NCBI GenBank assembly: GCA_041489255.1
Contig: JBGPQV010000007.1
Location: 4,006 to 68,005 of the forward strand
DNA length: 64,000 bases
Direction: 5' to 3'
From: Thermoplasmata archaeon
GTDB lineage: Archaea; Thermoplasmatota; Thermoplasmata; RBG-16-68-12; JAFNFQ01
Positions 5,273-7,226 of the stretch are shown here, in pieces. A program made the translations under genes and the position numbers. The notes under the pieces were generated by a model, which ran no database searches, had not been told where the DNA came from, and worked only from the letters and a program-made list of their open reading frames with translations. The stretch's first letter is position 1; the number at the start of each line of letters is the position of its first letter.

Positions 5273-6134
5273 GGCTGAGGCGTTCTGCCCCGGTCACATC
5301 ACCGCCTTCTTCGAGATATGCCCCGACGCCGATCCCCGCCGCCGCGGCTCGAGAGGCGCGGGTCTGTGCACATCACTCGGAGTGAAGACCGAAGTCAAGG
5401 TCAGGGAGGCTGCCCGCCAGCGCATCAGGATCTTCCTGGACGGAGAGGAGGAGAAAGCTGAGACCACTCTGAGGGCTGTCAAGAAGCTCATCGGCGATAA
5501 GAGGCTGGAGGTCTACGTCCTGAGTGAGGTGCAGCTGCCGGTCTCACAGGGGTTCGGGATGAGCGGGGCGGGGGCATTGAGCACCGCCCTCGCGCTGAAC
5601 GAGGCGGCGAAGCTCGGTCTTTCCCGCGACGAGGTTGTCGGAGCCGCGCACGAGGCCGAGGTCGAGTCGCTGACAGGCCTCGGGGACATCTACCCGCAGT
5701 CGCTTGGCGGGATGGACCTGAGGATTGAACCGGGCGGCCCGCCGCACGGGATCGTCAAGAGGTTCGAAGTGGCGGTTCCTCTGCTCCTGTGTGTCATCGG
5801 CCCGCCCATGCTCACGAAGTCCGTGCTCCACGACCCCGAGAAGGCGAAGGTCATCAGCGCGGAAGGCCACCGTTGCGTCGAGGAGTTCAAGAAGAGCCCG
5901 ACGCTGGAGAACCTGTTCAGCCTTGGGCGGGAGTTCGCTGTCAAGACCGGACTGGCGGGAAGCAGGCTCATCGAGGCGATCGACTCCTGCGCACCCTACG
6001 GAAAGGCAAGCATGTCGATGCTGGGGAACAGCGTGTTTTGCATGGGGAACGCAGAGATGCTTGCCACCATACTTTCCCCGTATGGGCAGAGGCTGAAGTG
6101 CGAAGTAGACCAGAAAGGCGCTAGGCTTCTCTAG
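5262..6134 (+). CDS. archaeal pantoate kinase (GHMP-kinase family, COG1829)
   Basis: N-terminal CPGHITAFFEI motif, glycine-rich GHMP loop (GFGMSGAGALSTALA); adjacent/overlapping coaBC as in archaeal CoA operons. Confidence 0.7.
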   Translation: MVSRAEAFCPGHITAFFEICPDADPRRRGSRGAGLCTSLGVKTEVKVREAARQRIRIFLDGEEEKAETTLRAVKKLIGDKRLEVYVLSEVQLPVSQGFGMSGAGALSTALALNEAAKLGLSRDEVVGAAHEAEVESLTGLGDIYPQSLGGMDLRIEPGGPPHGIVKRFEVAVPLLLCVIGPPMLTKSVLHDPEKAKVISAEGHRCVEEFKKSPTLENLFSLGREFAVKTGLAGSRLIEAIDSCAPYGKASMSMLGNSVFCMGNAEMLATILSPYGQRLKCEVDQKGARLL

Positions 6135-6167
6135 GATTCTCGTCTACACCTCTCGGTCTGCCGAGAG

Positions 6168-7121
6168 TTGACGAAGGTTATTTCTATCGACGGGACCAAT
6201 CAACCTGAGGAGATGCGTGTGAAGTTGTCGGAACAGTCTCCTGCGCAGGACCCTCAGGAACCGGATTCGCATCCGAAGCTGACATTGATACGAGCAAAGG
6301 GTTCGCGGTCGGAGATGTACGCCAATGTCCTCGCGGTTATTGCCACTGTATTTGCGATTCTAGTAGCGATAGCATTGTTCTGGTGGGCCAATTCAGGTAT
6401 CATCAGCTCCTGCGAAACCTGCGGACCAGTCGTCCTCAGCGCTCCGGAGAGGGGGGGCGAACCCTCGAATTATACCGTGACGTTCATGGTCGTACATGGA
6501 CCGCAGAACGGGTTCGAGAGCCTTACGAACTTCAAGACATTGATGGTGAGGGACGGCGAGCCGCTTGTCGCTCGTGCCCTGGACCTGAACGCATCGGGCC
6601 CCATGCGGTTCGGGTCGAACGTCACGCTGTCCTTCACCGACACCGAGAGAGACGGCCGGTTGACTTCAGGTGACGGATTCCTCGTCTTCGGCATGACGGG
6701 TATTCACGAATGGAAGTTCCACCTCATCAGCCCGAGTGGGGACCTGCTGAGCTCAGTGACCTGGGTCACGCCTTACATAAGCACAACTGCCGTGCAGACG
6801 GGTGGAGGCGGCACGAATCAAACCGCGACCTTCAGCATTGCCGAGGCGTCCGAGCATATCCCTCTCTCCTCGAACTTGAAGGTGTATCTGTCAGGGTACG
6901 GTTGGACACTTCCGAATTCTCCGATGACATTGCAGGCAGGCGGTATCATGTATTTCGGTTCAAACGTCTCTCTGATATTCACTGATATCGGAGGTGACGG
7001 TCAATTGAGCTCGGGAGACGGATTCCTTTTCTACGGGATGGGAAGCGGATCATGGGCATTGCGCTTAATATGCGGCCCGGATGTACTCCTGATACATTCC
7101 TTGTCTTGGGATACGACTTGA
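6168..7121 (+). CDS. hypothetical membrane-anchored extracytoplasmic protein with two internal tandem repeats
   Basis: N-terminal TM (VLAVIATVFAILVAIALFWWA); two paralogous ~110-aa halves (MRFGSNVTLSFTDTERDGRLTSGDGFLVFGM / MYFGSNVSLIFTDIGGDGQLSSGDGFLFYGM); probable ATG at 6213 with GGAGG upstream. Confidence 0.55.
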   Translation: MTKVISIDGTNQPEEMRVKLSEQSPAQDPQEPDSHPKLTLIRAKGSRSEMYANVLAVIATVFAILVAIALFWWANSGIISSCETCGPVVLSAPERGGEPSNYTVTFMVVHGPQNGFESLTNFKTLMVRDGEPLVARALDLNASGPMRFGSNVTLSFTDTERDGRLTSGDGFLVFGMTGIHEWKFHLISPSGDLLSSVTWVTPYISTTAVQTGGGGTNQTATFSIAEASEHIPLSSNLKVYLSGYGWTLPNSPMTLQAGGIMYFGSNVSLIFTDIGGDGQLSSGDGFLFYGMGSGSWALRLICGPDVLLIHSLSWDTT

Positions 7122-7146
7122 AAGCTCTTATCCTCAGACGTAGCCA

Positions 7147-7226
7147 AGATTCTGGCCACGATTCTCTCCGGATACGGGCAGAGGATGAAGTGCGAGGTGG
7201 ACCAAAGGGGTGTCAGGATTCTCTGA
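7147..7226 (+). pseudogene. diverged duplicate of the pantoate kinase 3' end (…ILATILSGYGQRMKCEVDQRGVRIL*)
   Basis: ~80% nt identity to 6056..6134 (…MLATILSPYGQRLKCEVDQKGARLL*), in-frame incl. stop; direct repeat bracketing CDS 6168..7121. Confidence 0.7.

Follow-up and report, generated by a model that had tools for sequence, protein, structure and literature searches.

Why are the last codons of a housekeeping gene found twice, about 1 kb apart, with another gene lying between the two copies? This question is raised by the pantoate kinase (PoK) gene of a Thermoplasmata archaeon, located in a 64,000-nt stretch of contig JBGPQV010000007.1 (positions 4,006 to 68,005, forward strand; NCBI GenBank assembly GCA_041489255.1), which is further called the window. 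In the present analysis the duplicated end was compared with the functional one, with two similar duplications in the window, at coaBC and pyrF, and with the corresponding loci of related genomes. The downstream copy of the PoK end is a non-coding relic. The comparisons favour its displacement by a small cassette that would have carried a gene-end copy of its own.

The duplicated end of the pantoate kinase gene

The PoK gene itself is intact (5262..6134, + strand, 290 aa); it was taken from the list of open reading frames (ORFs), matches Pfam GHMP_kinases_N, and its homologues are named pantoate kinase. Its functional 3′ end (6055..6134, +), recovered as the upstream repeat copy both in self-comparison and in window blastn, is of the type ending in ARLL, with TAG as the stop codon. 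The displaced end (7147..7226, +) is a hybrid, with SGY in its left part and GVRIL before the stop in its right part. Positions 6055-6132 and 7147-7224 align without gaps over 78 nt, and the pair was detected with E = 8.7e-8 in a blastn self-search of the whole window. The terminal 26 codons plus stop recur in frame (EMLATILSPYGQRLKCEVDQKGARLL versus KILATILSGYGQRMKCEVDQRGVRIL, each followed by a stop), as the initial annotation had stated on the basis of the window alone; the duplication stands, while the nucleotide identity, given there as about 80%, was measured at 76% over the 78 nt. The longest run of identical nucleotides is 10 nt. Past the stop codon a weaker likeness, read by eye, appears to extend for about 50 nt (CACCTCT... 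and CGAAGGTTA).

The reading frame of the downstream copy opens right after the stop codon of the inserted gene, its sole in-frame ATG leaves 13 codons, and there is no gene call at this place in the JGI or NCBI records. This copy is non-coding and not a gene. The possibility of its being part of a longer, unrelated gene was rejected, as it lies outside any called gene.

Between the two copies lies the cargo segment (6135..7146, +), absent from the relative L006, with a GC content of 0.55 versus 0.63 for coaBC and PoK together. As proposed earlier (6168..7121), it holds a single gene, whose likely start is the ATG at 6213, as in its homologues (6213..7121, +; 302 aa; GC content at third codon positions, GC3, of 0.66). 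The product, further called the TM protein, consists of two paralogous beta-rich halves, which are 39% identical (BLASTP E = 2e-20), in agreement with the initial annotation; an internal repeat is also found in the DNA, where the first-half copy (6602..6695, +) and the second-half copy (6947..7040, +) are 70% identical. Residues 32-61 form a hydrophobic stretch, modelled as a helix, and are read as the membrane anchor that had been claimed. The AlphaFold2 model as a whole is poor (pLDDT 38), too poor for a fold search, which was therefore dropped. A homologue search returned only three proteins. No Pfam family was matched by the TM protein, by the small ORF that follows, or by two cargoes of the relatives discussed below (cassette X and the cargo of L008), and no terminal inverted repeats were found at the cassette ends.

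Downstream of the relic a small conserved ORF is located (7236..7604, +), the ancestral neighbour of PoK. It encodes 112-122 aa in the relatives; the databases call only 62 aa here, corresponding to its last 62 codons. It is conserved in all close relatives (74-87% DNA identity), where it invariably stands last in the PoK array; the sequence hints at a small protein of winged-helix-like type. According to the gene tables, a phosphopantothenate synthetase gene follows PoK in none of the relatives, so nothing expected is missing from this place.

Only three gene-end duplications were detected in the window by blastn self-search: those of PoK, coaBC and pyrF. The other two, to which the same architecture had been ascribed, proved equally real (E = 5e-36 for coaBC and E = 9e-14 for pyrF). 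At coaBC the duplicated part is the 5′ end. The functional promoter and 5′ end (4033..4152, +; ATG at 4076) start with CATCAACATCTATTAATCCCC, a motif which occurs only in the coaBC-end copies. The second copy, relic B (403..522, +), comprises the coaBC promoter and the first 25 codons; segments 403-522 and 4033-4152 are 87.5% identical and retain identical runs of 36 and 19 nt. The cassette between them (523..4032; GC content 0.52) contains a gene for a 1017-aa surface protein (752..3805, − strand; DUF7948, SBBP, CARDB). The contig L013 extends the window upstream and brings the number of coaBC 5′-end copies in this genome to three. The complete array reads: relic A, a 139-aa ORF, a 20-nt mini-relic, cassette c2 (encoding a 255-aa membrane protein), relic B, the 1017-aa gene and coaBC. 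The segment shared by L013 and L001 is delimited on its left by the mini-relic, which is a shortened version of the coaBC promoter motif. The slot proximal to coaBC is empty in L001 and occupied by two other, small genes in L030, and a DNA methyltransferase cassette at the coaBC 5′ end of L025 has boundaries of the same kind. An inverted repeat, GGACA N6 TGTCC, was noticed just upstream of several coaBC-end copies.

The coaBC promoter and the first ~85 nt of the gene are about 89-92% identical, synonymous sites included, between the window (4033-4160), L026 (6899-7066) and L025 (3476-3647), genomes with 78% identity overall. Such conservation fits repeated overwriting of this end by incoming copies and could also reflect another constraint.

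The third pair belongs to pyrF (55715..56362, OMPdecase), on the − strand. The functional 3′ end (55734..55842, window blastn) is followed by a 1.3-kb, mostly non-coding insert (54424..55714) that is absent from L039. Beyond it lies the relic (54319..54423), 75% identical to the functional end with a 4-nt deletion; it directly adjoins the Zip gene, like the pyrF end of the empty-site relative. The empty site is represented by L039, in which one stretch of 80 nt matches both window copies; this relative was found by a look-up with the neighbouring GTPase, and a look-up with pyrF gave the same genome only. The insert contains 21-nt and 63-nt tandem repeats of GTCGTCTGG-like units, its sole public call is a 57-aa ORF, and no Rfam family was matched in it.

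Alleles, empty sites and stacked cassettes in related genomes

The relatives were gathered by PoK scans and homologue look-ups, and are about 78-93% identical in core genes. The origin of the second copy can be judged from the distribution of differences among codon positions. Between the functional end and the relic, differences at positions 1/2/3 number 4/4/14 in the window, 6/5/16 in L001, 4/2/14 in L008 and 2/3/14 in L017, with no indels in any of these pairs. Functional ends of orthologues, used as controls, gave 2/2/13 (window versus L001) and 5/3/16 (window versus L007). As the differences fall mainly at third positions, the two copies are alleles that diverged while coding, rather than a copy decayed in place. 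In agreement with this, every relic is nearer to the functional end of another genome than to that of its own.

The type of end also tracks the cargo that follows it: the ARLL end with TAG stop goes with the TM gene, ARIL with X, GARVL with an AbiE-like pair, and GAIVL or GVRIL with the small ORF. In the relic behind the TM gene the left part (SGY in place of SPY) is tied to this gene in three genomes, and the right part matches whatever adjoins it downstream, in the window GVRIL as in L006. Since the left part follows the preceding cargo and the right part the downstream sequence, the relics are hybrids, as a reciprocal crossover inside the homology would produce them.

Identity along the loci is discordant between cassettes and core genes. 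Over 1161 nt (L013 3043-4203 versus L001 7726-8886), cassette c2 and the coaBC copy belonging to it show 98.7% identity, while the core genes of these genomes are 89.5% identical; similarly, window positions 1-517 match L001 at 99.4% and the neighbouring genes at 89.5%. The coaBC copy linked to c2 is the working 5′ end in L001 and relic B in the window. With the functional coaBC end of L001 relic B shares 99% identity, and with that of its own genome only 87.5%. In the opposite direction, genomes that agree at 93% over coaBC-PoK have TM cassettes with only 77.5% identity. The cargo as a group has a GC content of 0.52-0.58 versus 0.62-0.63, and its GC3 is lower as well. Taken together, these comparisons argue strongly that the second copy is an allele of the gene end which was delivered by a cassette and not made in place.

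The region downstream of PoK differs from genome to genome. In L006 the small ORF, homologous to 7236..7604 of the window, follows at once. Positions 831-1296 of L006 align with 7147-7602 of the window, so the window relic and its downstream sequence are the ancestral, uninterrupted PoK end. In L026-28 PoK is followed by an AbiEi/AbiEii-like pair, a 162-nt PoK relic and L006-type sequence; the AbiE-like pair is itself a cassette, as the relic after it leads to that downstream sequence. An AbiE-like pair and the small ORF are found in L007, with no relic detected, and cassette X, a relic and an AbiE-like pair in L001. The window has the TM gene, the relic and the small ORF; L017 and L030 have X, a relic, the TM gene, a second relic and AbiEi; and L008 a two-gene cassette, a relic, AbiEi and further genes. 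Empty sites are known for each target: PoK in L006, pyrF in L039, and the coaBC-proximal slot in L001.

Arrays of two cassettes (PoK in L017/L030) and of three (coaBC in L013) occur, with the newest adjoining the gene. In L017 the functional-end type of the window is the relic behind the newer cassette X. The recurrent, gene-end-targeted insertion or cassette exchange which the initial annotation had suggested from one locus and its two counterparts is thereby backed by comparative data at all three.

The cargo of the relatives includes the AbiEi/AbiEii-like pair (with a weak Pfam match to AbiEii) and N6/N4 DNA methyltransferases; cargo of defence type was located at L001 11764-13177, L026 9087-10521, L025 1946-2818, L013 796-1806 and L030 11522-12496. 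With such genes among the cargo, the gene-end sites serve in part as defence islands. More distant PoK loci (L003, L005, L022-24, L029) contain no relics, so the phenomenon looks confined to a genus-level clade. Distant homologues of X (59% identity, L033-36) are found in unrelated contexts with no repeats, and scans of viral contigs with the X protein and with a 221-aa protein of L008 gave no match.

A one-domain version of the TM gene is located downstream of the small ORF in L008. This unit is flanked by direct copies of CTCTCGGT(C/T)TGC (3019-3033 and 3752-3766). After it, at L008 3802-3880, a PoK copy of pure cassette type (SGY...ARLL) is found, and the contig ends 55 nt further on. The arrangement may represent a different opening of the same circle.

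Proposed entry of the cassettes and competing explanations

The reading which we prefer, at a probability of roughly 0.6, is that the cassettes carry their own copy of the gene end and enter by a reciprocal crossover within it, guided by homology rather than by an integrase acting on attachment (att) sites. According to this reading, the TM gene would have arrived in a cassette of about 1.1 kb, which also brought a copy of the PoK terminus: the final ~80 nt including the stop codon, and a few tens of bases beyond it. This copy would then undergo a single reciprocal crossover with the resident end, the cassette presumably being a circle of gene-end copy and cargo at that stage; the cassette-borne end would thereby be joined to the body of PoK, and the enzyme would stay intact. 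The resident end would be displaced downstream and become the non-coding relic, still attached to its original neighbour. Repetition of this event, with each newcomer next to the gene, would build up an array of the gene, an end with cargo, a relic with older cargo, and so on. The 5′ end of coaBC, copied together with its promoter, and the 3′ end of pyrF would be subject to the same process, and cassettes with their gene-end copies would be exchanged between related lineages. The circle, and an enzyme acting on it, are what we infer from the observed architecture, empty sites, stacking, linkage of end and cargo, hybrid relics, and discordant identity of cassettes and core genes. As in a Campbell-type insertion, direct copies of a homologous segment flank the insert, accompanied by hybrid relics and by end-cargo linkage.

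No recombinase was found in the window, in the cargo genes tested against Pfam, or in the flanks of the loci (up to 10 kb to either side) of eight relatives. The repeats are long (78-168 nt) and their inner boundaries change from cassette to cassette: −79, −128, −134 and −168 from the stop codon at PoK, and +76, +83/86, about +116 and about +130 from the start codon at coaBC. There is no convincing motif common to the three repeat families; a 12-mer shared by PoK and pyrF in opposite orientation was treated as chance. The missing recombinase, the length of the repeats, the variable boundaries, the lack of a common motif and the lack of terminal inverted repeats are the reasons why homology-guided recombination is favoured. 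Its agent could be the host machinery or an integrase of the pTN3 type provided in trans.

Several points weigh against the reading just described. Neither a circular form nor an excision junction was observed, and for ordinary homologous recombination the identity of the copies, 75-93% across some 100 nt, is low. It also leaves unexplained how a new cargo first acquires a fragment of a gene end. The order of units in L008 does not follow the rule that the newest stands next to the gene. Cassette X and the two-gene unit of L008, which are unrelated, have the same relic boundary (−128) to within about 3 nt; this could indicate a preferred site; one inherited relic with later replacement of cargo also fits. 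An integrase in trans is possible as well, the search for recombinases having covered the window, the cassettes and the 10-kb flanks. Finally, several of the arguments on origin and mechanism are drawn from segments of about 100 nt.

The source being a metagenome, two co-occurring populations might have been joined by the assembler or in binning, as the step in identity to L001 after window position 517 could suggest. The PoK-gene-relic arrangement is, however, reproduced at 100% identity by a JGI metagenome contig and two Logan assemblies, and at 99.99% by the NCBI metagenome-assembled genome (MAG), with the same PoK junctions in contigs from at least three sequencing runs. Because the arrangement is identical or nearly so in separate assemblies, including Logan assemblies of other runs, the PoK junctions are not an accident of assembly. 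An assembler join on the copies is unlikely too, as their identical runs, 10 nt at most for PoK, are too short to seed one, and analogous arrays occur in six other, separately assembled genomes. An assembly chimera was accordingly rejected, and we regard the chance of any such artefact as negligible.

Duplication in place, by a long target-site duplication from staggered breaks or by a tandem duplication with decay of the downstream copy, would account for the direct repeats around the insert, and any duplicated stretch of some 100 nt would reach into a gene end where the genome is compact. It was nevertheless rejected as highly improbable: the third-position bias is that seen between orthologues, the relics are nearer to functional ends of other genomes (relic B included), the ends are linked to cargo, repeat length varies, and terminal inverted repeats are lacking.

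Somewhat less improbable, though still unlikely, are one-off illegitimate joins of diverged chromosomes, following cell fusion or uptake of long DNA, with ordinary homologous exchange thereafter; relics would then be by-products and the cassettes immobile. The mosaic identity along the loci (segments of 98.7%, 89.5% and 77%) and the arrangement in L008, which misfits simple accretion, agree with such a history, and later crossovers could also yield hybrid relics. Against it stand three loci in 64 kb and at least eight relic-bounded units, all at gene ends, all direct and all with the gene intact, and the repeated occurrence of the small units X, TM and c2, each accompanied by an end copy of its own, in differing backgrounds.

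A more serious competitor, which we consider possible yet clearly less probable than homology-guided entry, is classical site-specific integration. The units would be decayed or satellite elements resembling cis-mobilizable elements (CIMEs) or microCIMEs, the gene-end copies would be attL and attR, and the genes for one or more tyrosine integrases would lie in another part of the genome or on a helper. Insertion into 3′-distal parts of protein genes and tandem arrays are indeed documented for archaeal integrated elements (PMC6563490), decayed elements with att sites and no recombination genes are common in streptococci (PMC7563491), and in tycheposon islands newcomers displace older elements into the island (bioRxiv 10.1101/2020.12.28.424599). 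All the repeats are direct, the element-borne copies restore the gene, the −128 boundary is common to two unrelated cassettes, and the coaBC pair keeps its 36- and 19-nt identical runs. As to a short core common to attL and attR, the longest identical run is 36 nt in the coaBC pair and 10 nt in the PoK pair; decay after insertion could have erased such a core. On the other hand, an integrase was found in none of about ten cassettes across eight genomes, the gene-proximal ones included, and in streptococci it is the most decayed elements that lie farthest from the target (PMC7563491). Inner boundaries differ for nearly every cassette, the identical run of the PoK pair does not exceed 10 nt, the three sites have no motif in common, and repeats of 80-170 nt exceed the reported archaeal att sites of 8-69 bp (PMC6563490).

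Known systems, other features of the window and significance

The arrays share their logic with archaeal arrays of integrated elements, with CIMEs and with tycheposon islands, and constitute a variant of the tandem accretion of integrative elements. What is new with respect to known accretion is the minimal, recombinase-free nature of the units, the newest among them included, the long, diverged repeats of protein-gene ends, the use of a promoter-bearing 5′ end, and three loci within 64 kb.

Archaeal integrated mobile genetic elements (iMGEs) insert into the 3′-distal part of protein genes with the help of integrases and reuse sites in tandem (PMC6563490). They resemble the present units in the insertion at a gene 3′ end, direct repeats, an intact gene, empty sites in relatives and tandem reuse of the site. 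Unlike them, iMGEs carry integrases or casposases and are bounded by short identical att sites or target-site duplications (8-69 bp, PMC6563490); here one- or two-gene units are seen with 80-170-nt repeats at 75-93% identity, and a promoter-bearing 5′ end is used as well. In other words, the flanking direct repeats at a gene end and the empty site were found, and an encoded recombinase or casposase was not. CIMEs and microCIMEs (PMC7563491; Bellanger et al. 2011, as presented in PMC7563491) are also small tandem units at a target-gene end, with att-like repeats and no recombination genes. They derive from integrative and conjugative elements (ICEs) or integrative and mobilizable elements (IMEs), rely on an adjacent integrase-bearing element, and are most decayed farthest from the gene. 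The units described here likewise have repeats and no recombination or transfer genes, but no integrase-bearing tandem partner was found within 10 kb on each side, the gene-proximal unit is equally minimal, and the hosts are archaeal.

Tycheposon islands of Prochlorococcus (bioRxiv 10.1101/2020.12.28.424599) show repeated integration at a single gene, partial target copies between units, older units pushed outward, and adaptive or defensive cargo; they differ in having tRNA genes as targets, att sites of about 40 nt, and tyrosine recombinases on the elements. In our scan a single tRNA gene was found, far from the arrays. The integrase of pTN3 from Thermococcus recombines any pair of similar segments of at least 104 bp (PMC5495485), a minimum close to the repeat length here, and is a candidate type of enzyme for homology-guided insertion, although it is known for chromosomal inversions in Thermococcales and not for cassette insertion. 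No pTN3-like integrase was found in the sequence examined.

Integron cassettes are similar in being promoterless or single-gene units stacked at a fixed chromosomal point with the newest nearest. Here there is no IntI, attI or attC hairpin, and the recombination sequence is a copy of a housekeeping-gene end, which differs by locus; an integrase, a common site motif and inverted repeats at cassette ends are all absent. Transposons and casposons do not fit either, with no terminal inverted repeats found and with the repeats of 78-168 nt variable and not copies of the local allele. More speculatively, and with doubts prevailing, the units could form an integrase-free, integron-like cassette system of this Thermoplasmata-related lineage, in which single-gene modules (surface proteins, toxin-antitoxin pairs, DNA methyltransferases) with gene-terminus homology arms of about 100 nt insert, stack, excise, cross species and overwrite the ends of their targets. 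Continual overwriting would explain the identity of about 92% seen in the coaBC promoter and the first ~85 nt of the gene among genomes whose overall identity is only 78%.

Apart from the arrays, the window includes a conserved cluster (7629-14605) of MTHFR, DUF5981, FlpD (MvhD-like), a large HdrA-like flavoprotein with two paralogous halves, a CCG-domain protein and a ferredoxin-like protein. Its likeness to an Hdr-linked methylene-tetrahydrofolate reductase module deserves attention in a Thermoplasmata-related archaeon. Next to pyrF (56655-57841) lie two tandem paralogous genes of small GTPases of the Ras/Arf/Roc type, with about 69% DNA identity; relatives with about 95-97% DNA identity share the 145-aa GTPase unchanged at the protein level. 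Very large secreted or surface proteins (DUF7948, SBBP, CARDB, PKD, BNR, VWA) are encoded at 752-3805, 18423-23840, 44387-51477 and 57993-63543, and their internal repeats make up most of the other repeat families of the window. An exosortase/archaeosortase-like gene was noticed at 62617..63543.

For the biology of these organisms, the arrays point to a route by which archaea with no obvious mobile-element machinery may gain and exchange accessory genes, such as those of surface proteins and defence, between housekeeping genes that remain undamaged. Such islands may be recognized in metagenomes by incomplete, diverged gene-end copies at a distance of 1-4 kb from the gene. The finding is also a warning for annotation: the terminal codons or promoters of some core genes would have been horizontally replaced, so that the history of the end differs from that of the gene body. 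If the insertion is indeed guided by homology, it would be a natural analogue of pop-in/pop-out genetic engineering, and possibly a tool for uncultured archaea.

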